From the IMG/VR virus record IMGVR_UViG_3300042892_003674: 64,000 bases of DNA; one strand, written 5' to 3'. Position 1 is the stretch's first letter. Each line of letters starts with the position of its first letter. The notes under the pieces are model-generated. The model did not search any database and was not told the DNA's origin. It saw nothing but the letters and a program-made list of their open reading frames with translations. This DNA comes from a virus (Duplodnaviria > Heunggongvirae > Uroviricota > Caudoviricetes). A program made the translations under genes and the position numbers. Shown one piece after another: positions 145-9,318 of this stretch.

Positions 145-3100
145 ATGGCTGCTTATAATGGTATTTTTATTACAGATAATACAGATACTATTACTACAAC
201 ATCAACAAGTGCAAATGCTATTATATTATCTTCAAATACGGTAGTGAATGATAGTTTAACTAATACCGTTGTTATTGGCGGACAGTTTTTAACGGTAGAT
301 AGTTCTGATACCGTTTATCTAGGTGGTACAGTAGATATAAATAATCAATATAAATTACCTTTATCAGATGGTATATCAGGACAAGTTATAAAAACAGATG
401 GTGCTGGAAATCTTAGTTGGTCTTCCGGAGTTGGAACACCAGTTATTACAGTAACTGCTGCCGCATTTACAGCACTTTCATCATTTTCATCATCTAGTAC
501 TTATAGAATAACAGGTGTTGATATAGATTTATATGGAGGAACAGAAATATACCTAACTACAAACTCACAAGGAGTATTAAATGAGGTTGGAGAAGGTAAA
601 TTCTATAATCCTAGGTATGATCAAACAGTTCATGGATATAAAATATGGGAGGGTACTTCATCATCTTATGCAACGGGTTCCACTGTTTATTGGGGTGGTA
701 GGGCATGGTCTAATAATAGTGGAACTAATACTTCACCTGCATTGACTATATTCTTCTTAAATCCAACAGAATGGACAGTTATTCCTTATACAAATGGTCT
801 TTATTATGATATTAGTTATGATAAAATTATGTATGATAGAGTTACTGATAAAATCATTTATAGAAATGAAAAAGGTACAAATATAGTAAGTACTAATAGT
901 GAGAATATTAGATATTGGGTAGATGATATTGGATTATATAATCCGATAAAAGTATTTCAATGGGGTAATTTATATAATCCACTTAATGCTAAGGGAATTG
1001 CTAGTCAAAATATAGTAAATTCTTATAATGAAAATATCAATTTTAGAGGTGTTTTACAAACCAATATAACAATGAATAACCTATCATCTCAATTTAATAT
1101 GAATACTGGTACAAGTTCAGTACAAGATAATTTAATATTGAATAATTATTCTTATGATAGACAATCAACATTATTAGGAACTGAGTATAATATGTCTTTT
1201 CAAAGTGGTGATACTATTACTATTGATGGTAATTTAGTGGTTCAAGGTACAACAACAACAATAAATAGTGAGAATTTGATAGTTAAAGATCCTATTATAG
1301 TATTAGCTGCAAGTCAATCAGGAACACCAACACTAGATTCAGGTTTATTTGTAGATAGAGGTATTGGTGCAACTCAAGCTTTTATTTGGGATGAGTCAAT
1401 GGATGAGTTCAAGTTTATTTCAACAACAAGTGGTGCAACAGTATCAGGTAATGTTAGTATAACAGATTATTCTAATGTGAGAACAGGAGTTTTAAAAGTT
1501 GGTACTGGTGATTTTGATTCGAATGATAGATTTGTAGTTTCTTCATATGGTGGAACAGTTTCTTTAATAGTTGATGAGTCTGGTAGTGTTTATAATAGAG
1601 GTAGAGCTGGAATTGTAACTAATACAGTATTTGGTTTAAGTGCATTAAGTTCTAATACAAGTGGCTATCAAAATACGGCAATTGGTGCAAGTGCATTACT
1701 TTCAAATACACTAGGATTTGAAAATACTTCAGTTGGTGCAAGTACATTACTTCTAAACACAACAGGTAGTAGAAATACTGCAGTTGGTGATTCGTCATTA
1801 AGATCAAATACAACTGGATTTTCCAATACAGCAATTGGTGTCGATTCATTATATTCTAATACAACAGGAGTTTCCAATACAGCACTTGGTGTATATTCAT
1901 TAGTTAATAACAAAACAGGAGGTTCTAATACAGCACTTGGATCAGATTCATTACGTTTTAATACAGGAGGTTCTTTTAACACGGCAGTTGGTTATAATTC
2001 ATTATATAATAATACAACTGGTGTTACTTTAGATGAATTTTCTTTTTCACCAGGTGCTGGATATATTGATGGATATTATAGTGGTGTTACATTGATATAC
2101 TCAACTGGTAGTAATAATTTTATGAATTCTCCAATAGTTAGTATAGAAATATTTAGTGGTGAAATAGTATCTGTTTCTACAGAATATATAGGTAGTGGAT
2201 TTTCTGATACTACAACAGTTTTTACAATTAATTCATATGGTATATATGCAACAGGTTCTGGGTTTGAGATAGGTATACTATCATTGTTAAGTGGTCTTAA
2301 TAATACTGCAGTTGGTTATACTTCATTATATTCAAATACAACGGGCTTAGCCAATGTGGCAGTTGGTTATAATTCATTATATTCAAATATATCTGGTAGT
2401 TTTAATAGTACACTTGGTTCAGGTGCATTATTTTCTAATACATTTGGTTCTAATAATACTGCACTTGGTAATTCATCATTATATTCAAATACAACTGGTT
2501 TTTCCAATACTGCACTTGGTGTCGTTGCATTACGTTTTAATACATCTGGTTCTTATAATACTGCACTCGGTTATCAATCATTATATTCAAATACAGGTGG
2601 TTTTTCCAATAATGCAATAGGTAATAGTGCATTATATTCAAATACAACTGGTATTTCCAATAATGCAATAGGTAATAGTGCATTATATTCAAATACAACT
2701 GGTTCTAGAAATATCGCATTTGGTGAAAGTTCATTACGTTCTAATACAACTGGTTCTTGGAATATTGCACTTGGTATGCAATCATTATATAATAATACAA
2801 CAGGTTATGAAAATACCGCACTTGGTTTTAATTCATTATTTTCAAATACAACTGGATGGGGTAATATTGCACTTGGTGTTGCATCATTATATTCAAATAC
2901 AACTGGAGATAGAAATACTGCACTTGGATATGTAGCAATGAGATATTATAGGGGATCATGGAGTGTTGGACTTGGAGGTTCCGCATTGTCAGTTGCCTCA
3001 ACTGGAATAAAAACACTATCTGCTACATTCTCATCAGGTACTGGTTATATACCGGGTACATACTCAAATGTTAGATTAGTATGGTCTGGTGATGGTACTT

Positions 3101-4068
3101 TTTGGCCAGCACCTAGTAATTCAACAAATGATTATCCTACTGCAGAAATAGTTGTTGGTGTAGGTGGTACAGTTAGTTCAGTAACATTAAAAAATAGAGG
3201 TGTTTTAATTCCAGATACTACAACTAGATTCACTGTACAAACAGGTACTCAGAGTTATCAATTAGGAACTGCATCAGGTAGTGGATTTTCAATAGGTATT
3301 GGTACTATTGCTACTGCAGATATGAATACTGCACTTGGATATGGGGCAATGTACAGACTTGGTGTAGGCTCTGATAATATTGGAATAGGTATGTGGGCAG
3401 GTACTTCATATGGAATGCCTGGAGGTTTCAACAATAATGCCTTAACAGGATCAGATCAATCTATATTCATAGGTAGATTTACATCTGCACTTAATAATGA
3501 TAGTGTGAATGAAATTGTTATTGGAAATGAAGCAGTGGGTAATGGTAATAATACAGTTACTTTAGGTAATGATAGTGTAACTAAAACAATTCTTAAAGGA
3601 AATGTAGCAGTAGGATTTACCGGTTCAGTTTCTCCAAATTGTGATTTAGAAATAAAAGGTAATCAAACATTTACTGTTCCTGATACTAATAGTAGAACCG
3701 CTGGTGATGTTGTTTATTTTGGTTCTGGTACAGGTTTAACACCAGGAGTAATATATTATTATAATGGAACAGCTTGGCAATTGGCAGATGCTTCAGTAGA
3801 AGCAAGTTCATCTGGATTATTAGCAATCGCTTTAGGAACAAATGTTTCTGATGGTATGTTATTAAGAGGATTTTCTAAATTTAGTGATGCTATATATACT
3901 GCAATGACCGCAGGTTCTGTACAATTTTTATCAGTAACAAGTGGTCAATTTGGAGAATCACAACCGGTTTCAAGTGGTGAGGTTGTTAGAGTAATTGGTT
4001 ATTGTGTTGATGATACAAATAACGTATTATATTTCTGTCCTGATACTACTTGGATAGAATTACTATAA
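145..4068 (+). CDS. Giant tail-fibre/adhesin-like structural protein with tandem 17-aa NTAxG repeats. The reading frame is open from position 1, so the gene may start before the window.
   Basis: 1307-aa ORF with no in-frame stop between nt 1 and 144. Residues ~495-935 are ~25 degenerate repeats of the form SL(Y/R)SNTTGxxNTA(L/I)Gxx, resembling YadA-head/Hep_Hag-type adhesin repeats. It is Gly/Thr/Asn-rich with no clear enzymatic motifs. Confidence 0.85.
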   Translation: MAAYNGIFITDNTDTITTTSTSANAIILSSNTVVNDSLTNTVVIGGQFLTVDSSDTVYLGGTVDINNQYKLPLSDGISGQVIKTDGAGNLSWSSGVGTPVITVTAAAFTALSSFSSSSTYRITGVDIDLYGGTEIYLTTNSQGVLNEVGEGKFYNPRYDQTVHGYKIWEGTSSSYATGSTVYWGGRAWSNNSGTNTSPALTIFFLNPTEWTVIPYTNGLYYDISYDKIMYDRVTDKIIYRNEKGTNIVSTNSENIRYWVDDIGLYNPIKVFQWGNLYNPLNAKGIASQNIVNSYNENINFRGVLQTNITMNNLSSQFNMNTGTSSVQDNLILNNYSYDRQSTLLGTEYNMSFQSGDTITIDGNLVVQGTTTTINSENLIVKDPIIVLAASQSGTPTLDSGLFVDRGIGATQAFIWDESMDEFKFISTTSGATVSGNVSITDYSNVRTGVLKVGTGDFDSNDRFVVSSYGGTVSLIVDESGSVYNRGRAGIVTNTVFGLSALSSNTSGYQNTAIGASALLSNTLGFENTSVGASTLLLNTTGSRNTAVGDSSLRSNTTGFSNTAIGVDSLYSNTTGVSNTALGVYSLVNNKTGGSNTALGSDSLRFNTGGSFNTAVGYNSLYNNTTGVTLDEFSFSPGAGYIDGYYSGVTLIYSTGSNNFMNSPIVSIEIFSGEIVSVSTEYIGSGFSDTTTVFTINSYGIYATGSGFEIGILSLLSGLNNTAVGYTSLYSNTTGLANVAVGYNSLYSNISGSFNSTLGSGALFSNTFGSNNTALGNSSLYSNTTGFSNTALGVVALRFNTSGSYNTALGYQSLYSNTGGFSNNAIGNSALYSNTTGISNNAIGNSALYSNTTGSRNIAFGESSLRSNTTGSWNIALGMQSLYNNTTGYENTALGFNSLFSNTTGWGNIALGVASLYSNTTGDRNTALGYVAMRYYRGSWSVGLGGSALSVASTGIKTLSATFSSGTGYIPGTYSNVRLVWSGDGTFWPAPSNSTNDYPTAEIVVGVGGTVSSVTLKNRGVLIPDTTTRFTVQTGTQSYQLGTASGSGFSIGIGTIATADMNTALGYGAMYRLGVGSDNIGIGMWAGTSYGMPGGFNNNALTGSDQSIFIGRFTSALNNDSVNEIVIGNEAVGNGNNTVTLGNDSVTKTILKGNVAVGFTGSVSPNCDLEIKGNQTFTVPDTNSRTAGDVVYFGSGTGLTPGVIYYYNGTAWQLADASVEASSSGLLAIALGTNVSDGMLLRGFSKFSDAIYTAMTAGSVQFLSVTSGQFGESQPVSSGEVVRVIGYCVDDTNNVLYFCPDTTWIELL
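1627..2950 (+). repeat. Tandem ~51-nt (17-codon) repeat array inside the first CDS, interrupted at ~2040-2290.
   Basis: Recurring nucleotide blocks such as ttatattcaaatacaactgg...aatactgcacttggt. The array causes spurious antisense ORFs at 1652..1982 and 2354..3016. Confidence 0.8.
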
Positions 4069-4070
4069 CA

Positions 4071-4106
4071 GAAAAGACTTTGAGAAATCAAAGTCTTTTC
4101 TTTATT
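4071..4106. terminator. Bidirectional intrinsic terminator between convergent genes.
   Basis: Stem aaaagacttt / aaagtctttt with loop gagaaatc, flanked by an A-run and a T-run. Confidence 0.6.
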
Positions 4107-4897
4107 ATATAATCATATACTGTTTCAATTACCAGCTCATTCTCTTTAGTTTTTTTACTATCTGATAAAAAGTGTGTATATCCTAATATACTTGCTGCAT
4201 CATCAATATTATTTATTGATGAGAAATCAGTAATCAACTTAACATTGTAGTTAAAATAATTACATAAATTAGTAATATAAAATTGTTCAAAAATTAAAGA
4301 TGTTATCTCATATTCCATATTGTAATTATCAATATATTCAATGTATTTTAATGCTTCACTCCACCAAATATCTAATATATCTAATCTATTAAATCCAATT
4401 ATACCACAATTATAAGACTCTTTAAAATTCCAATTTATATATTTTGAATCAAGTCTAAAGTTATTTATAAGATTAATGTAGGGACGTATATGACCTAATC
4501 CTACATCTTTCATAATTTCACTTTGCTGAAAACAAGCATCACTGTTTAGTAAATCTATTGGTGGTTTCTTTGACCAAATTACGTCATTATCTATATGAAT
4601 AAATGGTTCCTTCTGTATCTTACAGGCATATATTTTACCAATGGCCCAATGTTTAGAATCAATATTACTAAGAGCAGTTTCTAATTCAATAGATACTGAT
4701 GTAAATGGTAGTTTATACTTATCAATTAAAAGCTCTTTTCCCTTAATATCTGTTACCAATTCAACCTTAGAAAAATAATTTTTACTCATTTCTAATGAAA
4801 TTGATAAACATTTTATGAATATTTCCTCTCTATTAAATCCAAGTAAAAAGTCATCCATTGGTTTTGTCCAAAGTGAATATATTGCCTTATCTATCAT
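4088..4897 (-). CDS. Hypothetical protein.
   Basis: 269-aa ORF whose TAA lies inside the terminator hairpin. Contains a HIDNDV (DxD-like) motif, but no firm family assignment is possible. Confidence 0.7.
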   Translation of the reverse strand: MIDKAIYSLWTKPMDDFLLGFNREEIFIKCLSISLEMSKNYFSKVELVTDIKGKELLIDKYKLPFTSVSIELETALSNIDSKHWAIGKIYACKIQKEPFIHIDNDVIWSKKPPIDLLNSDACFQQSEIMKDVGLGHIRPYINLINNFRLDSKYINWNFKESYNCGIIGFNRLDILDIWWSEALKYIEYIDNYNMEYEITSLIFEQFYITNLCNYFNYNVKLITDFSSINNIDDAASILGYTHFLSDSKKTKENELVIETVYDYIIKKRL

Positions 4898-4928
4898 TTA
4901 ATTTATATTAAATAACTTAAATAAGTTG

Positions 4929-5014
4929 AAGAGAGCAAGGGAATCGAACCCTACCCAGTTTCCCGGGCGTCTCGCTTAGCAGGCGGACCCTATCACCATC
5001 AAGGTTTACTCTCC
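4929..5014 (-). tRNA. tRNA-Ser(GCU), class II with a long variable arm. The anticodon stem has one mismatch.
   Basis: Acceptor GGAGAGU/GCUCUCU, T-arm GGGTTCGATTCCC, variable stem CCCGG-GAAA-CTGGG, anticodon loop CTGCTAA, length 86 nt. Confidence 0.6.
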
Positions 5015-5020
5015 ATATTG

Positions 5021-5106
5021 CAGTGAACAAGGGAATCGAACCCTATGCGATTCAACGCACGTGCTGCTTTCCAGGCAGACCCAATCACCATCAAGGTTTA
5101 CTCACT
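5021..5106 (-). tRNA. tRNA-Ser(GGA), class II.
   Basis: Anticodon stem CTGC/GCAG with loop CTGGAAA, T-arm GGGTTCGATTCCC, D-arm identical to the previous tRNA, 86 nt. Confidence 0.7.
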
Positions 5107-5112
5107 ATGTTG

Positions 5113-5199
5113 CGGAGAAAACAGGGCTCGAACCTGCACACCAGTTTCCCGATACCGGTTTTCAAGACCGGGGCGATACCAATTACGCTTTACTTCTCC
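5113..5199 (-). tRNA. tRNA-Ser(UGA), class II.
   Basis: Acceptor GGAGAAG/TTTCTCC, anticodon stem CCGGT/ACCGG with loop CTTGAAA, T-arm CAGGTTCGAGCCCTG, 87 nt. Confidence 0.75.
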
Positions 5200-5210
5200 A
5201 AGTAATTTAG

Positions 5211-5294
5211 AAGAGAGTGTGGGACTCGAACCCACAAAGGTACTACCCTTTACTAGTTTTCAAAACTAGGCCTTCATCCAGCCAGTTACTCTCC
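5211..5294 (-). tRNA. tRNA-Ser(UGA), second copy, class II.
   Basis: Acceptor GGAGAGT/ACTCTCT, anticodon stem CTAGT/ACTAG with loop TTTGAAA, variable stem AAAGG-GTAGTA-CCTTT, T-arm TGGGTTCGAGTCCCA, 84 nt. Confidence 0.75.
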
Positions 5295-5303
5295 ATATAT
5301 TTG

Positions 5304-5375
5304 TGATTCCAGAGGGAATCGAACCCCCACCTGATCGTTCGTAGCGACCTATCCTATCCGTTAAACGATGGAACC
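5304..5375 (-). tRNA. tRNA-Arg(ACG).
   Basis: Acceptor GGTTCCA/TGGAATC, anticodon stem GGTCG/CGATC with loop CTACGAA, T-arm GGGGGTTCGATTCCCTC, 72 nt. Confidence 0.8.
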
Positions 5376-5379
5376 AATT

Positions 5380-5416
5380 AAAAACAAAAAACCCACAAAC
5401 TTTGAGGTTTGTGGGT
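5380..5416 (-). terminator. Intrinsic terminator, candidate attenuator hairpin, directly upstream of tRNA-Arg.
   Basis: On the minus strand: ACCCACAAAC-CUCAAAG-UUUGUGGGU followed by UUUUUUGUUUUU. It sits 19 nt after the stop of leader ORF A and ends 2-3 nt before the 5' end of the tRNA. Confidence 0.6.
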
Positions 5417-5436
5417 ATACTAATTTTTTATATCAA

Positions 5437-5514
5437 TTATGAATACAACAGAACCTCCCTCAAATTACTTGAGCGACTAGACGAACTTGACGATGTTGTG
5501 ATAATTGTTTTCAT
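5437..5514 (-). CDS. Candidate Ser-rich leader peptide A, 25 aa: MKTIITTSSSSSSRSSNLREVLLYS.
   Basis: ATG lies 6 nt after the TTTTAATATATAAATAAT motif. Nine Ser codons (TCG, TCA, AGT, TCT) plus CGC, matching the anticodons of the five tRNAs immediately downstream: Ser GCU/GGA/UGA x2 and Arg ACG. The ORF is below the 60-aa cutoff of the ORF track. Confidence 0.45.
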   Translation of the reverse strand: MKTIITTSSSSSSRSSNLREVLLYS

Positions 5515-5535
5515 ATTATTTATATATTAAAATTT
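5515..5535 (-). promoter_or_regulatory. Conserved TTTTAATATATA upstream motif, candidate phage promoter for leader A and tRNA block 1.
   Basis: Minus strand reads GAATAAAATTTTAATATATAAATAATATG. The same motif recurs upstream of more than 12 start codons in this window. Confidence 0.45.
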
Positions 5536-5558
5536 TATTCTTTGTTTTTATTTATTTG

Positions 5559-5689
5559 ATAGAAAGGTGGGACTCGAACCCACAACCACGGCTTTAACAG
5601 AGCGAAGTAACTTATTTCATTGCTACTAATTTCTTAGAGAAAGACTGACTAAGTATGATTACGTGCTCTACCAATTGAGCTACTTTCTA
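5559..5689 (-). tRNA. tRNA-like gene with a ~57-nt structured insertion between the D-arm and the anticodon stem. It may be an intron-containing tRNA-Asn(GUU) or a tRNA pseudogene.
   Basis: Perfect acceptor UAGAAAG/CUUUCUA, canonical D-arm GCTC-AATTGGTA-GAGC, T-arm GTGGGTTCGAGTCCCAC, anticodon-like loop CTGTTAA (GUU) with a 4/5-bp stem. Total length is 131 nt against an expected ~75. The inserted segment can fold as GUAA...UUAC enclosing CTTAG...CTAAG. Confidence 0.45.
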
Positions 5690-5693
5690 TTTG

Positions 5694-5764
5694 CACGTCG
5701 ACTAGGACTCGAACCTAGAACATTGGTTTTGGAGACCAAGATGATGCCATTTCACTATCGACGT
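5694..5764 (-). tRNA. tRNA-Trp(CCA).
   Basis: Acceptor ACGTCGA/TCGACGT, D-arm GTGA-AATGGCA-TCAT, anticodon stem TTGGT/ACCAA with loop CTCCAAA, T-arm CTAGGTTCGAGTCCTAG, 71 nt. Confidence 0.8.
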
Positions 5765-5771
5765 GTTTTGG

Positions 5772-5844
5772 GTTGACAGACGGGACTTGAACCCGCAATC
5801 CCTTGGTTCACAACCAAGTGCTTTAACCATTAAGCTACCATCAA
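5772..5844 (-). tRNA. tRNA-His(GUG), with no encoded G-1.
   Basis: D-arm GCTT-AATGGTTA-AAGC, anticodon stem CTTGG/CCAAG with loop TTGTGAA, T-arm GCGGGTTCAAGTCCCGT, 73 nt. Confidence 0.7.
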
Positions 5845-5846
5845 AG

Positions 5847-5921
5847 TGACCCCGGTGGGGATCGAACCCACGACCCCTCGATTAAAAGTCGAGTGCTCTA
5901 AACCAGCTGAGCTACGAAGTC
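5847..5921 (-). tRNA. tRNA-Lys(UUU).
   Basis: D-arm GCTC-AGCTGGTTTA-GAGC, anticodon stem CTCGA/TCGAG with loop CTTTTAA, T-arm GTGGGTTCGATCCCCAC, 75 nt. Confidence 0.85.
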
Positions 5922-5930
5922 ATTATTTTG

Positions 5931-6002
5931 TGCGGACTGACGGAATCGAACCGACCTCTTAGGGACTTCACTCCTACGCTAAACCGTCTCAGCTAAATCC
6001 GC
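5931..6002 (-). tRNA. tRNA, probably Phe(GAA). The structure is irregular: A-C at positions 31-39, G32/G37, and a U-U in the T-stem.
   Basis: Acceptor GCGGATT/AGTCCGC, anticodon arm TAGG-A-GTGAAGT-C-CCTA, T-arm GTCGGTTCGATTCCGTC, 72 nt. Confidence 0.5.
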
Positions 6003-6008
6003 AATTTG

Positions 6009-6081
6009 GGTGAAAGACGGGGATCGAACCCGCGACAACTTGAACCACAATCAAGCACTCTACCACTGAGCTACAATCACC
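6009..6081 (-). tRNA. tRNA-His(GUG) with an encoded G-1 pairing C73.
   Basis: Extra 5' G before acceptor GTGATTG/CTTTCAC (two U-U pairs), D-arm GCTC-AGTGGTA-GAGT, anticodon stem CTTGA/TCAAG with loop TTGTGGT, T-arm GCGGGTTCGATCCCCGT. Confidence 0.7.
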
Positions 6082-6088
6082 ATGTTTG

Positions 6089-6161
6089 TGGACCCTCAGG
6101 GAATCGAGCCCTGTCCTTTGGATTTTCAGTCCAACGTACGCACCAGCTATACGAAAGGTCC
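6089..6161 (-). tRNA. tRNA-Phe(GAA).
   Basis: Acceptor GGACCTT/AGGGTCC, anticodon stem TTGGA/TCCAA with loop CTGAAAA, T-arm CAGGGCTCGATTCCCTG, 73 nt. Confidence 0.75.
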
Positions 6162-6171
6162 ATTATATTTG

Positions 6172-6245
6172 CACAAGCCAAGGGAGTCGAACCCTTTCCA
6201 TCCGAGGTTTTGGAGACCTGGTGCATACCATTATGCTGACCTGTA
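6172..6245 (-). tRNA. tRNA with a CCA anticodon (Trp-like, second copy). The D-arm and the 26-27 junction are irregular.
   Basis: Acceptor ACAGGTC/GGCTTGT, D-stem GCAT/ATGC, anticodon stem (C)AGGT/ACCT(C) with loop CTCCAAA, T-arm AAGGGTTCGACTCCCTT. Confidence 0.5.
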
Positions 6246-6250
6246 TTTTG

Positions 6251-6323
6251 TGATCCCGGTGGGACTCGAACCCACAACCTTCTGATTAAAAGTCAGAAGC
6301 TCCACCAATTGAGCTACGAAATC
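6251..6323 (-). tRNA. tRNA-Lys(UUU), second copy.
   Basis: Acceptor GATTTCG/CGGGATC, D-arm GCTC-AATTGGTG-GAGC, anticodon stem TCTGA/TCAGA with loop CTTTTAA, T-arm GTGGGTTCGAGTCCCAC, 73 nt. Confidence 0.85.
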
Positions 6324-6329
6324 ATTTTG

Positions 6330-6402
6330 TTCCCCCGCCGGGAGTCGAACCCGGCCCCATAAGTTAAAAGCCTATTGCCTACCGCCAGTTTGCTACGAGG
6401 GA
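6330..6402 (-). tRNA. tRNA with a UUU-type anticodon loop (third Lys-like). The D-arm is poor.
   Basis: Acceptor TCCCTCG/CGGGGGA, anticodon stem ATAGG/CTTAT with loop CTTTTAA, T-arm CCGGGTTCGACTCCCGG, 73 nt. Confidence 0.55.
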
Positions 6403-6404
6403 TT

Positions 6405-6445
6405 ATAAAATAAAAAAACCCAAACTTAATTTTAAGTTCGGGTTT
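6405..6445 (-). terminator. Intrinsic terminator, candidate attenuator hairpin, immediately upstream of tRNA block 2.
   Basis: On the minus strand: CCCGAACUU-AAAAUU-AAGUUUGGG, perfect only as RNA thanks to a G-U pair, followed by UUUUUUUAUUUUAU that ends 3 nt before the 5' end of the tRNA at 6402. Confidence 0.6.
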
Positions 6446-6474
6446 ACGTTTATGCTTTATTCTCTTTTATGACA

Positions 6475-6585
6475 TTATCCTACAATAACATCTTCTTTTG
6501 AGAACGACATACTCATACATCCGAACTTGTGGCTAAACCACTTGAACGACTTACTAAAGCTTGTATGTTTGAAATTTGTTCTCAT
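6475..6585 (-). CDS. Candidate F/K/H/W-rich leader peptide B, 36 aa: MRTNFKHTSFSKSFKWFSHKFGCMSMSFSKEDVIVG.
   Basis: ATG lies 6 nt after TTTTAATATATATAAC. Composition is 6 Phe, 5 Lys, 2 His, 1 Trp and 7 Ser in 36 codons, matching the Lys/Phe/His/Trp tRNAs downstream. Codons AAG-UUC-GG are complementary to the 5' arm of the terminator. Confidence 0.5.
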   Translation of the reverse strand: MRTNFKHTSFSKSFKWFSHKFGCMSMSFSKEDVIVG

Positions 6586-6606
6586 TGTTATATATATTAA
6601 AAGTTT
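6586..6606 (-). promoter_or_regulatory. Conserved TTTTAATATATA upstream motif, candidate promoter for leader B and tRNA block 2.
   Basis: Minus strand reads AATAAACTTTTAATATATATAACAATG. Paralogous to the 5515..5535 copy. Confidence 0.45.
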
Positions 6607-6675
6607 ATTCTCTCTTTTTGTTTTTTTGTTATTTTTATAGTACAAAAGTAATAAAAGTTTACTTATCTACCTAAT

Positions 6676-6912
6676 TTATTTTAATTTATTTTTAATTTTA
6701 GTTGTAATCTTCTCTAAACTTGATTTAGAATTTGTTTTTTGTTTTGGAAATCTGCCATGATTTCCCATACTATCATAGTCAGCACATTCATATGCTGAAG
6801 GTGATGGTAGTCCACTATAGTGACAAAATTCATCCTCACTAAGTATTTCCTCTTTTTTATCTTCTTGTTTCATATTTAAAACTTCTTCTTTATTTATATT
6901 ACAAAGATACAA
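6676..6912 (-). CDS. Hypothetical small protein.
   Basis: 78-aa ORF in a co-oriented gene block. Confidence 0.5.
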   Translation of the reverse strand: MYLCNINKEEVLNMKQEDKKEEILSEDEFCHYSGLPSPSAYECADYDSMGNHGRFPKQKTNSKSSLEKITTKIKNKLK

Positions 6913-6920
6913 CTATATTT

Positions 6921-7199
6921 TTATAAACCAAGAATTTCTTCAAGTTTTCTATCTCTATACTCTTCTAAAGTTATAAAATCCCTAGCATAATACTGACCAA
7001 GTTTGTTTTTTCTTTCATCATAAACATCATATATAGGACAAATACCATAGTCACCTAAAAGTTTGACTTCGGTATATACACCATAATAAGTTTCATTCAC
7101 AACTAATTCTTTGTTTCTTGTATAGGAAATGTCTGGCTCTGCTATACAAAATATTTTTAAAATCATATTAAAGTCTTTTAATGTCAGGTAAAGTTTCAC
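6921..7199 (-). CDS. Hypothetical small protein.
   Basis: 92-aa ORF. Confidence 0.5.
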   Translation of the reverse strand: MKLYLTLKDFNMILKIFCIAEPDISYTRNKELVVNETYYGVYTEVKLLGDYGICPIYDVYDERKNKLGQYYARDFITLEEYRDRKLEEILGL

Positions 7200-7434
7200 T
7201 TGAATTAAGCATGTTACGAATAACTACTTTTTTTAACGGTGTTAGTTTTTTGTTTTTTAAAGCCTCTTCCACAATAAGGTGGTATGATAAACCCGATATA
7301 CTGTGACTTTTAAAGTTAGTTGACTCTTTTTTAACGAGTTCATCATAATTTGCACTTGGCATAGATTCTTTAAATAATTGACGATGTATATCGAGAATTA
7401 TCTTTTCCTCTTTACTAATTTTGGTCATTTCCAT
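7168..7434 (-). CDS. Hypothetical small protein.
   Basis: 88-aa ORF; its 3' end overlaps the next ORF by 32 nt. Confidence 0.45.
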   Translation of the reverse strand: MEMTKISKEEKIILDIHRQLFKESMPSANYDELVKKESTNFKSHSISGLSYHLIVEEALKNKKLTPLKKVVIRNMLNSSETLPDIKRL

Positions 7435-7481
7435 AATTGTATTTTGTGTTTTTTATATATAAAAGAAAAAAACTGTTAAAA

Positions 7482-7685
7482 ATGCCCGCCCGCTCAAAAC
7501 AGCAATTAAAGTACATTTTTGCGATGCGTCGTAAATATAAAAACAAAAAAAGTGCTCCTAAACATATGAAGTGGGTATTTAACAAAGATTGGACCCACGA
7601 TGTCAATGTAAGTGGGTTACCAACCAAAGTTAAAAGCTTTCAAACTTATGTAAGTGAGAACTACGATGCTACTACTAAAAAGTAG
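7482..7685 (+). CDS. Candidate small Lys/Arg-rich basic protein, possibly nucleic-acid binding.
   Basis: 67 aa from ATG 7482: MPARSKQQLKYIFAMRRKYKNKKSAPKHMKW... It begins with an unusually GC-rich stretch, gcccgcccgc. It sits in an otherwise non-coding gap. The competing antisense ORF 7415..7627 is hydrophobic junk. Confidence 0.3.
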   Translation: MPARSKQQLKYIFAMRRKYKNKKSAPKHMKWVFNKDWTHDVNVSGLPTKVKSFQTYVSENYDATTKK

Positions 7686-8914
7686 TTTTTCTTACCTCTC
7701 TGAACTATAATAAATTTGTTATTTATTAAATCACCATCAGTTACGATGTATATTTCTTCTCTTTTTATTTTATTTACTGCAACAGAGTTTTCTTTTAAAG
7801 CTCGTCTTGCTTCATTATTAGATTTTAAGAAGCCAGTTTTAAATAGAATGTCGGTCATTGATATACCATTCACAATCTCTTCCATTGGAACATTTGCCAT
7901 TGGTAATCCACTAAATATATCTAAAATAGTTTCATTATCAAGTGAATTTAAGTTACCATTGTTAAATAGAATGTTTGAAGCTTCTACTGCTTTGTTAAAC
8001 TCTTCTTCACCATGTACCATTATAGTCAATTCTTTGGCTAATGTTTTTTGTAATAAAAACAAATGTCTAGCTTTATTGTGTTCTTCTATTAAACCATCAA
8101 TAGTTTCTTTATCTAAAAATGTAAAGATTTTAATAAATCTTTCTGCATCTGCATCATCTGTGTTTAACCAAAATTGGAAAAACTTGTAAACAGATGTTTT
8201 ATCTTTATCTAACCATATATTCCCACCTTCTGACTTACCAAATTTTGTACCATCTGCTTTTGTTAAAAGTGGACAAGTCATAGCAAATGCTTCTCTACCT
8301 GGGAACATCTTGTGTATCAATTCTGTACCTGTTGTTATGTTACCCCATTGATCAGAACCACCCATTTGTAATAAACAGTTATGTTCTTTATTAAGGTGTA
8401 AGAAATCGTATCCTTGAATCAACTGGTATGTAAATTCAGTGAAAGACATACCTTCACCTTCGATACGGTTTTTTACAGATTGTTTTGATAACATGTAATT
8501 TACGGTAATTCTTTTACCGATGTCTCTTACAAAGTCTATGAAACTAAACTTTGACATCCAATCGTAGTTGTTTAGAACTGGTGTATCACCTAAAAATCTT
8601 GTTAAAGTATTTCTGATACCTTCGACGTTTTTATTAAGTGTTTCTTCATCTAAAAGATTTCTTTCAGATGATTTCCCAGATGGGTCACCGATCATACCAG
8701 TAGCACCACCGACAACTGCGATTGGATTATGTCCAAAGTTCTTCATATGTTTTAAAAGAATGATTGGAACTAAACTACCAATATGTAGAGAATCTGACGT
8801 TGGATCAAATCCAATATAAGCGGTGGTGGCTTCTTTTAAAAGTTGAGCCTCCGTTCCGGGTATAATATCATGTACTAACCCACGCCATTTTAATTCTTCT
8901 ACTATATTTTTCAT
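7661..8914 (-). CDS. tyrS: Tyrosyl-tRNA synthetase, bacterial type.
   Basis: GFDPTSDSLHIGSLVPI (HIGH-type motif), KFGKS (KMSKS), C-terminal S4-like domain, 417 aa. Confidence 0.9.
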   Translation of the reverse strand: MKNIVEELKWRGLVHDIIPGTEAQLLKEATTAYIGFDPTSDSLHIGSLVPIILLKHMKNFGHNPIAVVGGATGMIGDPSGKSSERNLLDEETLNKNVEGIRNTLTRFLGDTPVLNNYDWMSKFSFIDFVRDIGKRITVNYMLSKQSVKNRIEGEGMSFTEFTYQLIQGYDFLHLNKEHNCLLQMGGSDQWGNITTGTELIHKMFPGREAFAMTCPLLTKADGTKFGKSEGGNIWLDKDKTSVYKFFQFWLNTDDADAERFIKIFTFLDKETIDGLIEEHNKARHLFLLQKTLAKELTIMVHGEEEFNKAVEASNILFNNGNLNSLDNETILDIFSGLPMANVPMEEIVNGISMTDILFKTGFLKSNNEARRALKENSVAVNKIKREEIYIVTDGDLINNKFIIVQRGKKNYFLVVAS

Positions 8915-9318
8915 TATGCTAATACTTCTTTAATAACTTCTGATACAACTTTTCTGTCCACTTGTAAAGTAGCAAACTCTTTCATAATTCCACCAACATT
9001 GGTAATCCCTGATGCTACAAGTGCACTAACTTTTACAACAACATCTTCTCTTGTCATAGCAGCTGGAAGTAAAGCTTCAACCATTTCTAATTGAGTTTTA
9101 GATTCCGTGTCACCAGAAGTTGCAATAACTTCTTTAAGAGATTTCGCAGTTTTATTAAGAATTTTAATTACTTCTGCATCAGAAAGACAATCTACTCCTG
9201 TATTTTTTTCAATAGTTTGGATCTCTCCTTTCACTACAGAAAGTAAGTTTTTTGCTACGACATTTTTCTCTTTGAAAGCAGTCATGTAGTCTTTGCTAAT
9301 TTGTTCTTTTAAATTCAT
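8914..9318 (-). CDS. GatB/YqeY domain protein.
   Basis: 134 aa with a typical YqeY architecture. Its stop overlaps the tyrS start by 1 nt. Confidence 0.75.
   Translation of the reverse strand: MNLKEQISKDYMTAFKEKNVVAKNLLSVVKGEIQTIEKNTGVDCLSDAEVIKILNKTAKSLKEVIATSGDTESKTQLEMVEALLPAAMTREDVVVKVSALVASGITNVGGIMKEFATLQVDRKVVSEVIKEVLA

Follow-up and report, generated by a model that had tools for sequence, protein, structure and literature searches.

Leader-peptide attenuation is a textbook mechanism of transcriptional control, described by the Yanofsky model and exemplified by trpL, hisL, pheL, thrL, leuL and ilvL of the Enterobacteria. The pheM leader of the E. coli pheST operon, which encodes phenylalanyl-tRNA synthetase, is an attenuator that senses Phe codons. 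To our knowledge, this type of control has been known only for amino-acid biosynthesis, a few synthetase and transporter genes, and antibiotic-resistance genes. The subject here is a 64,000-nucleotide stretch of DNA from a virus of the Caudoviricetes (IMG/VR record IMGVR_UViG_3300042892_003674; the whole stretch is called the window), in which an array of tRNA genes on the minus strand is preceded by a short open reading frame (ORF) and an intrinsic terminator. This element, unit 1, is probably a transcription attenuator of the ribosome-mediated (leader-peptide) kind, with a block of phage tRNA genes under its control, and one of at least two such units in the window. A preliminary description, made from the nucleotide sequence of the window alone, had proposed a leader-peptide attenuator for this tRNA operon; several independent comparative lines now support the proposal, which also passed the in silico tests that the description had named.

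The design of unit 1 is that of the trp/his-type attenuators. It has a short leader ORF rich in the codons that it would report on, an intrinsic terminator just downstream, and, embedded in the ORF with the regulatory codons just upstream of it, a segment (region 2) that pairs with the 5' arm of the terminator. Unlike the trp/his-type attenuators, the phage units would regulate tRNAs and not biosynthetic enzymes, so that the loop would close on decoding capacity. In this respect they resemble pheM, whose target is also a component of the translation apparatus and not a biosynthetic pathway; however, pheM acts on a bacterial protein-coding synthetase operon and senses one amino acid, whereas the targets of the phage leaders are tRNA genes. 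T-box riboswitches also sense tRNA status and choose between a terminator and an anti-terminator upstream of translation-related genes, but their contact with uncharged tRNA is direct, made by a specifier codon and the T-box sequence, and requires no translation. The likeness to the leader attenuators in Rfam lies in the design and does not extend to membership of a sequence family. No match at E <= 1 was obtained with the Rfam families for His, Trp, Thr, Leu and Phe leaders, and a cmscan search of positions 4500-7800 at that threshold returned only tRNA-clan and chance-level matches, none of them in the leader (6405-6672). No prior description of leader-peptide attenuation of tRNA genes, or of its occurrence in a virus, was found in full-text searches of the literature (subscription-only articles excluded) or in PMC7162821. 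The features of unit 1 and its surroundings are the following.

Ending at 6676, minus strand: upstream gene, followed by an AT-rich leader.
6643 to 6674, minus strand: candidate host-type promoter, with TTAG at -33 (6674-6671), a 20-nt spacer and TACTTTTG at -7 (6650-6643).
6586 to 6636, minus strand: A-rich 5' untranslated leader, which includes TTTTAATATATATAAC (6602-6587) abutting the ATG.
6475 to 6585, minus strand: leader ORF 1, MRTNFKHTSFSKSFKWFSHKFGCMSMSFSKEDVIVG, 36 codons plus stop (ATG 6585-6583, TAA 6477-6475).
6523 to 6573, minus strand: regulatory codon block, codons 5-21, in which Lys, Phe, His and Trp account for 12 of 17 codons.
6521 to 6528, minus strand: region 2, the putative anti-terminator strand, AAGTTCGG, an exact complement of CCGAACTT in the terminator 5' arm.
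6407 to 6445, minus strand: intrinsic terminator (regions 3 and 4), with 5' arm 6445-6433, loop 6432-6429, 3' arm 6428-6416 and T-tract 6415-6407.
5693 to 6402, minus strand: tRNA sub-array 1, Lys(UUU), Lys(UUU), Trp(CCA), Phe(GAA), His(GUG), Phe(GAA), Lys(UUU), His(GUG), Trp(CCA).
5558 to 5689, minus strand: tRNA-like gene (CAT anticodon) interrupted after position 37 by an insertion of 51 nt (ARAGORN with introns allowed; T-arm 5583-5567).

The anatomy of the unit was established directly. The 36-codon minus-strand frame that the preliminary description had placed between an ATG at 6585 and a stop at 6475 is borne out by the sequence, as is its composition of 6 Phe, 5 Lys, 2 His and 1 Trp, or 14 of 36 residues. 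These four amino acids make up 14.2% of the residues in the long ORFs of the window, and their excess over the entire leader ORF has a binomial P of 1.6e-4. Within codons 5-20 they account for 11 of 16 codons (binomial P = 1e-6). The enrichment is confined to the cognate amino-acid set, and all of the regulatory codons are readable by the tRNAs encoded downstream. The family of such leaders, type 1, has the consensus HKHFSKSxKWFS. The peptide has no Pfam match; an exact-sequence look-up found only a 39-aa variant on record, labelled 'hypothetical protein', and gene callers overlook the leader ORFs.

The hairpin of unit 1 lies 32 nt beyond the stop codon, at 6445-6416, and consists of 13 bp (AAACCCGAACTTA-aaat-TAAGTTTGGGTTT) followed by TTTTATTTT. 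One of its pairs is a G-U pair that becomes a C-A mismatch on the opposite strand, and the hairpin is therefore perfect only as minus-sense RNA, as had been claimed. It has the form of a canonical terminator, flanked by A and T tracts. The first gene of the array, tRNA-Lys(UUU), begins at 6402, 4 nt after the T-tract and not 3 nt as first stated, and a gap of this size would leave no room for a separate promoter. Across the units found here the T-tract mostly lies 4-30 nt from the first tRNA, and the tRNAs would therefore be reached by read-through. Ten Lys, Phe, His and Trp tRNAs had originally been counted after the terminator. The four specificities hold, with ARAGORN, a dedicated tool, and Rfam agreeing on the identities (Rfam tRNA matches of 43-71 bits), but only nine of the genes are intact members of this set; the tenth position is occupied by the CAT tRNA-like gene (5689-5558). 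This gene sits between the two sub-arrays of the window, and its identity is uncertain (Met or Ile2). Insertions are also present in other tRNAs of relatives, namely the first tRNA-Lys of L004 and L016 (D-loop) and that of L011 (variable region).

The nearest GenBank relatives of the window are the uncultured phages LR756502 (642 kb) and LR745206 (635 kb). Phage genomes of at least 634 kb were assigned by Al-Shayeb et al. (2020) to the Mahaphage clade, which is predicted to replicate in Bacteroidetes (PMC7162821), and both relatives fall within this size class. Unit 1 is present in 24 distinct versions in related huge-phage contigs from IMG/VR, JGI metagenomes and these two GenBank genomes; freshwater samples such as IMG 3300027749 and 3300027969 are among the sources of the contigs. 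The versions were collected by DNA pattern scans of IMG/VR and the JGI metagenomes and then with a degenerate DNA pattern, which was far more productive than a back-translated peptide scan of IMG/VR (one extra locus). The same leader occurs in two IMG/VR contigs whose tyrosyl-tRNA synthetase (TyrRS) genes are 89% identical. Conservation of the micro-ORF in related genomes, proposed as a check in the preliminary description, was found in all 24 versions. Each has an ATG 27 nt 5' of the FSK..KWFS motif and a frame that stays open for 28-39 codons. The differences between versions include synonymous changes (GGA>GGT, TCA>TCT, GAT>GAC, ATT>ATC, TTC>TTT, AAG>AAA), an in-frame indel of 6 nt, and two single-base indels that together restore the frame. 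Outside the Lys, Phe, His and Trp positions the peptide is free to vary, for example at codons 2-6, 14 and 19; a leader peptide would be expected to behave in this way, and a functional protein would not.

The genes and the terminator downstream of the ORF are conserved as well. In each of the 23 versions whose sequence continues downstream, the tRNAs that come next are Lys(UUU/CUU), Phe(GAA), His(GUG) and Trp(CCA). The arrangement and number of these genes vary, and Lys, His or Phe can stand first. In L062, Ser tRNAs lie inside the first block, whereas in most lineages Arg(ACG) and Ser(UGA) follow later. A terminator of -12 to -17 kcal/mol with a T-tract is present in 23 of 23 versions with enough downstream sequence. 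Its stem differs by lineage (CCCGAAC, CCCAAGT, CTCTCGAATT, GTCCGAAC, GCTCGAAC, ATCTGAATC), and inside the clade of the window the hairpin is kept by compensatory changes (CTT/AAG to CTA/TAG; G-U to G-C), which adds to the earlier claim of a terminator. The same degenerate pattern gave 75 matches in GTDB genomes, none of them a true leader, and the unit was not found in these bacterial chromosomes.

The 8-nt complement between the leader (6528..6521) and the terminator 5' arm, which the preliminary description had taken for an anti-terminator pairing, is exact, and the duplex AAGTTCGG/CCGAACTT was equalled by only 7 of 500 shuffled leaders. The pairing also co-varies across lineages at the same position of the ORF. 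When the whole leader was searched for its best duplex with the terminator 5' arm and loop, this duplex was located at ORF nucleotides 57-76 (codons 20-25), right after the regulatory codons, in 22 of 23 versions. The lineages pair region 2 with the 5' arm as CAAGTTCGG/CCGAACTT, TCGATTCGA/TCGAATTGA, GAACTTGG/CCAAGTTC, AGTTCGGTACT/AGTCCGAACT, TGGTTCGTGCT/AGCTCGAACC and TCGGTTCTGAT/ATCTGAATCGA. Mean duplex energy was -12.3 kcal/mol for cognate combinations versus -6.5 kcal/mol (standard deviation 2.8) for non-cognate ones, and the cognate assignment was the best of 720 permutations. Shuffled leaders reached the observed value in 1-19 of 500 cases per lineage, and for the other leader types the cognate total was reached by 6 of 20000 random assignments. 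The three-way co-variation seen here between an ORF segment, the 5' arm and the 3' arm is the classical sequence signature expected of a 2:3 anti-terminator that would compete with a 3:4 terminator.

Matching between leaders and tRNAs extends beyond unit 1. The complete genomes LR756502 and LR745206 contain seven such units each. In LR756502 a leader ORF and a strong terminator precede each tRNA block, and the leader matches the block, as follows.

MRTINKHKHFSKLNKWFS...: Phe, His, Trp and Lys tRNAs follow.
MKTTIKNTSSRSRSS...: Arg and Ser tRNAs follow.
...IETIGYTGYEGAYSE...: Glu and Tyr tRNAs follow.
...ISVGVIAIGAG..., in which every Ile is ATA: Ile(UAU), Gly and Ala tRNAs follow.
...NLNMNLNTLTVVNNTL... 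(N/L/T/V/I type): Asn, Leu, Val, Ile and Thr tRNAs follow.
...VVVDQDQPD... (D/Q/P type): Pro and Asp tRNAs follow.
MTTSFQQQQQQQINRTD, a 17-codon ORF with a run of seven Gln: four tRNA-Gln follow.

The match of codons to anticodons in LR756502 is 0.41 on the diagonal versus 0.12 off it and is the best of 5040 permutations. For the individual leaders, the matching of composition over codons 5-20 has P values from 1e-6 to 7e-3. An automated finder recovered all seven types from LR745206, where the sequences have diverged and the composition is the same. In other phages, in which the Tyr/Glu and Ile/Gly/Ala blocks are fused, the leader is fused too; these leaders (IEAIGYAYEAG) stand before Tyr, Glu, Ile(UAU), Gly and Ala tRNAs and use ATA for Ile in the regulatory run. 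A scan of IMG/VR for more leaders with a Gln run returned only long poly-Q ORFs. The leaders with runs (QQQQQQQ, SSSSSSRSS) are comparable to hisL and pheL, and the mixed leaders (K/F/H/W, Y/E/I/G/A) to thrL and ilvL. The preliminary description had suggested looking in related genomes for leaders whose composition tracks the downstream anticodons, and such tracking was found in six further leader types, including that of a second unit in the window. The features of this second unit are listed below.

5437 to 5514, minus strand: leader ORF 2, MKTIITTSSSSSSRSSNLREVLLYS, conserved upstream of tRNA-Arg(ACG) in 11 relatives.
5447 to 5458, minus strand: region 2 of unit 2, GGAGGTTCTGTT, which complements the 5' arm and loop of the second terminator.
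5380 to 5416, minus strand: second intrinsic terminator, ACCCACAAAC-ctcaaa-GTTTGTGGGT plus T-tract, with the hairpin at 5416-5391.
4928 to 5375, minus strand: tRNA sub-array 2, Arg(ACG), Ser(UGA), Ser(UGA), Ser(GGA), Ser(GCU).

Codons 8-16 of leader ORF 2 read TCG TCA AGT TCG TCT AGT CGC TCA AGT, and Ser plus Arg account for 10 of 16 codons between positions 5 and 20 (P = 2e-6). The tRNAs of sub-array 2 jointly read every Ser and Arg codon of this run. Two of them, the long-arm Ser(GGA) (5102-5020) and Ser(GCU) (5014-4928), were missed by default ARAGORN; they were seen when its threshold was relaxed, and they also gave weak Rfam tRNA-clan matches. Among the Ser/Arg leaders of relatives, region 2 co-varies with the terminator (GTTCGA/TCGAAC, ATTCGA/TCGAAT, ATCCGA/TCGGAT). 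When a ribosome was modeled on the Ser/Arg run of unit 2 the 2:3 pairing formed, and when it was modeled on the stop codon the pairing was abolished. Unit 2 is thus, in the model, the textbook arrangement.

The promoter of unit 1 is likely a Bacteroidetes-type -33/-7 pair at 6674-6643, with a predicted start near 6637. This block is kept in all type-1 units (TTTG or TTAG at -33, TAnnTTTG at -7), and the same two elements, separated by a 20-nt spacer, stand upstream of most units. They follow the consensus of sigma-ABfr, the primary sigma factor of the Bacteroidetes (PMC7366714). In the window TAnnTTTGTA occurs at 25 sites versus 12.7 +/- 3.8 expected, a count reached in 0 of 100 shuffles, and this enrichment agrees with the prediction of a Bacteroidetes host. 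A simple sigma-70 scan upstream of the leader gave nothing convincing. The preliminary description had instead assigned the promoter to an AT-rich motif with a start near 6590; the likelier promoter, given the conserved -33/-7 pair, lies about 50 nt further upstream, and the AT-rich motif at 6602-6587 (TTTTAATATATATAAC) is probably not the promoter of unit 1. This motif also ends 1 nt before the ATG and not 6 nt before it, as had been reported. The TTAATATATATAA motif was considered as a general phage promoter and rejected, since it is not enriched in the window (3 matches versus 2.9 expected).

The motif that precedes the ATG may have a role in translation initiation in a host without Shine-Dalgarno sequences. 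The presumed host group lacks such sequences (PMC7366714), and a TTTAATATATAA-like motif, similar to TTTTAATATATATAAC, directly precedes the ATG of several other leaders from different lineages. In the window (C/A)TTTTAATATATA(T)AA abuts the ATG of both leader ORFs (6587-6602 and 5517-5538), and it has the same position in other lineages; in the rest of the window it shows no enrichment. A similar motif also precedes the Cys-rich ORFs inserted in relatives, and a second promoter or a recombination site are other options for it. The Bacteroidetes-type promoter and the lack of a Shine-Dalgarno sequence distinguish the phage units from the trp/his-type attenuators.

The conservation of the unit, the joint change of region 2 and the terminator, and the matching of leaders to tRNAs are, like its anatomy, direct observations; from them we infer a course of events that includes the transcription start, translation of the ORF, ribosome stalling, the direction of regulation and its physiological purpose. 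Host RNA polymerase would start near 6637 at the Bacteroidetes-type promoter and make a short leader, on which a ribosome would translate the 36-codon ORF, with its mostly Lys, Phe, His and Trp codons at positions 5-21. If too little usable aminoacyl-tRNA for these amino acids were present, decoding would slow and the ribosome would linger upstream of codons 20-22. Region 2 (AAGUUCGG) would then be left free to pair with CCGAACUU of the 5' arm once this was made, the terminator hairpin would not form, and polymerase would continue into the nine tRNA genes. If decoding were fast, the ribosome would cover or pass region 2 in time for the 13-bp hairpin and U-tract to form, and transcription would stop before the tRNAs. 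The outcome would be negative feedback, in which phage tRNAs are supplied on demand. Unit 2 (5514-5380), with its Ser run and Arg, would exert the same control over tRNA-Arg and four tRNA-Ser.

The alternative folds of the minus strand, which the preliminary description had recommended comparing, agree with this scheme in part. The transcript was modeled as ending before the 3' arm, with a 30-nt ribosome mask on the regulatory codons. When the mask stood at codon 9 or at codon 12, the 2:3 pairing was the minimum-energy fold in 9 of 9 lineages; at codon 16 this was so in 8 of 9. The ribosome-free fold of L001, L002, L026 and L027 was a 1:2 hairpin instead, and on the family alignment this hairpin had 82% of cells paired versus 34-53% in slid registers. 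In the lineage of the window the 2:3 pairing forms even without a ribosome and is blocked by a ribosome at codons 21-26.

Several observations weigh against the attenuator reading. In the lineage of the window the 1:2 hairpin is weak, a departure from the trp/his-type attenuators. In the family only 3 of its pairs have double changes, 12-38 of 500 shuffles reach the observed values, and RNAalifold does not recover it, giving for ORF nucleotides 19-90 a weak hairpin with no co-variation. The ORF in the lineage of the window extends 14 codons beyond region 2, and in the equilibrium model region 2 is no longer covered by a ribosome that has reached the stop codon, so that 2:3 can re-form. The simple model therefore does not account for the timing in this lineage, nor does the equilibrium picture fully explain how termination would be restored, which would depend on kinetics. 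The stability of the unit 1 terminator, about -15 kcal/mol, is also far above that of the 8-bp 2:3 pairing. The Ser codons within the type-1 motif are AGY, which the tRNA-Ser(UGA) further downstream cannot read; these codons probably have a structural role. Among homologs from the degenerate scan, F10-S11-K12 and K15-W16-F17-S18 are invariant in part because the search pattern required them, whereas H7, K8, H9 and the downstream gene content were not forced by it. Finally, ribosome speed reports on aminoacyl-tRNA, and the signal could be amino-acid supply and not tRNA abundance.

Of the other explanations for the locus, the one that survives best, though it is unlikely, is that the micro-ORF is an ordinary small-protein gene, for example for a cationic amphipathic peptide, with a promoter and terminator of its own, and that the tRNAs are expressed by unregulated leakage. 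The unit does have a promoter-like element and a strong terminator, its Phe residues are spaced 3-5 residues apart as on one helix face, and the 39-aa version carries a protein annotation. In L007 and L008 the terminator is directly followed by a protein-coding gene and not by a tRNA. These two loci were set aside as counter-examples because the gene is an insertion, a small Cys-rich ORF also found after the terminator in L012 and L013, and the K/F/H/W array is still downstream, starting 599 nt after the leader stop. The free variation outside the regulatory codons, the lack of a Pfam match and the co-variation of the ORF with the terminator arm at the RNA level are difficult to reconcile with a functional protein, as are seven unrelated leader compositions that match their own tRNA sets in two genomes. 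A run of seven Gln in a 17-codon ORF before four tRNA-Gln is implausible as a functional protein. An amphipathic-helix micro-protein was dropped because composition tracks the tRNA set across seven leader types.

It is very doubtful that the hairpin and U-tract are simply a constitutive terminator, an insulator or a 3'-end stabilizer of the upstream transcript, or a landmark for tRNA-precursor processing, with the ORF and the 8-nt complement present by chance. The canonical hairpin with its A and T tracts would suit such a role, and RNase P cleavage 4 nt past the tract would leave a hairpin-protected leader RNA. However, chance does not account for an ORF conserved over diverged lineages, for complementarity that co-varies at a fixed position in that ORF, or for the composition matching in every leader tested and across the permutations, and a constitutive strong terminator 4 nt before nine tRNA genes that apparently have no promoter of their own would silence them. 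That the leader is an RNA sensor which needs no translation and binds tRNA directly, in the T-box manner, is highly improbable, for although alternative terminator and anti-terminator structures exist here and T-box elements are a known way in which tRNA status controls translation-apparatus genes, the leaders measure no more than about 170-230 nt, have a very high AT content, match no T-box or other Rfam family at E <= 1, carry many codons for up to five amino acids instead of a single specifier, and keep an ATG-initiated open frame with in-frame indels in every version.

The genes around the tRNA arrays lie in a window of about 29% G+C. Upstream of the arrays, on the minus strand at 7661-9318, are a tyrosyl-tRNA synthetase (417 aa, phage-type by BLAST) and a YqeY-like protein (Pfam), and downstream, on the minus strand at 4088-4897, is a DUF6734 protein (Pfam match). 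An 82-aa basic ORF on the plus strand (7437-7685) has the TyrRS gene on one side and, on the other, the small genes that lie upstream of the leader; its DNA is conserved in L003 and L004. A 1307-aa ORF on the plus strand (145-4068) contains many tandem copies of NTA(L/V)G..SL..NTTG and may encode a fiber or other surface protein. Small Cys-rich ORFs are inserted in L008 (about 2.1-2.7 kb, minus strand), L016 and L022 (3270-3450). They sit downstream of the leader terminator, either ahead of the tRNA array or behind its first gene. They contain ...CDVRCANCHRIRT..., which resembles an HNH motif, and have an inverted repeat (GACTTTTAATATATA...AAAAGTC) just 5' of the ATG; this ORF looks like a mobile gene of the homing-endonuclease type that invades tRNA arrays. 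Another gene is inserted at the attenuator-tRNA junction of LR756502 (about 401.3 kb; L074, 46.33-46.55 kb), where a 67-aa ORF (MEPELEELIIREE...) lies between the terminator of the Asn/Leu/Thr/Val-type leader and the first tRNA-Asn.

The tRNA genes described here are closely spaced and would be co-transcribed and processed, like the tRNA clusters of T4, T5, and jumbo and huge phages. Huge phages encode up to 67 tRNAs (PMC7162821). Leader ORFs and candidate attenuators were found in the phages studied here, unlike in the tRNA clusters of other large phages, for which none is described in PMC7162821 or the literature searched. The phage units also differ from trp/his-type attenuators in being virus-encoded and in that up to seven parallel units per genome partition the tRNA set. 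On balance, it seems that the tRNA repertoire of Mahaphage-group huge phages is divided among sub-operons, at least seven per genome and two in the window, each autoregulated by a leader peptide made of the codons that its own tRNAs read, and that this is the first case of leader-peptide attenuation of tRNA genes. If so, such a phage would top up exactly those tRNAs that become limiting during infection, for example after loss of host tRNAs or their cleavage by anticodon nucleases, through a feedback circuit that reads host decoding capacity with codon resolution. With a size of about 200 nt each and at least seven codon sets covered, the units would be compact building blocks with which tRNA availability could be sensed in Bacteroidota. 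Such control would also explain why the tRNA arrays are grouped by amino acid and would show how phages regulate large sets of tRNAs.

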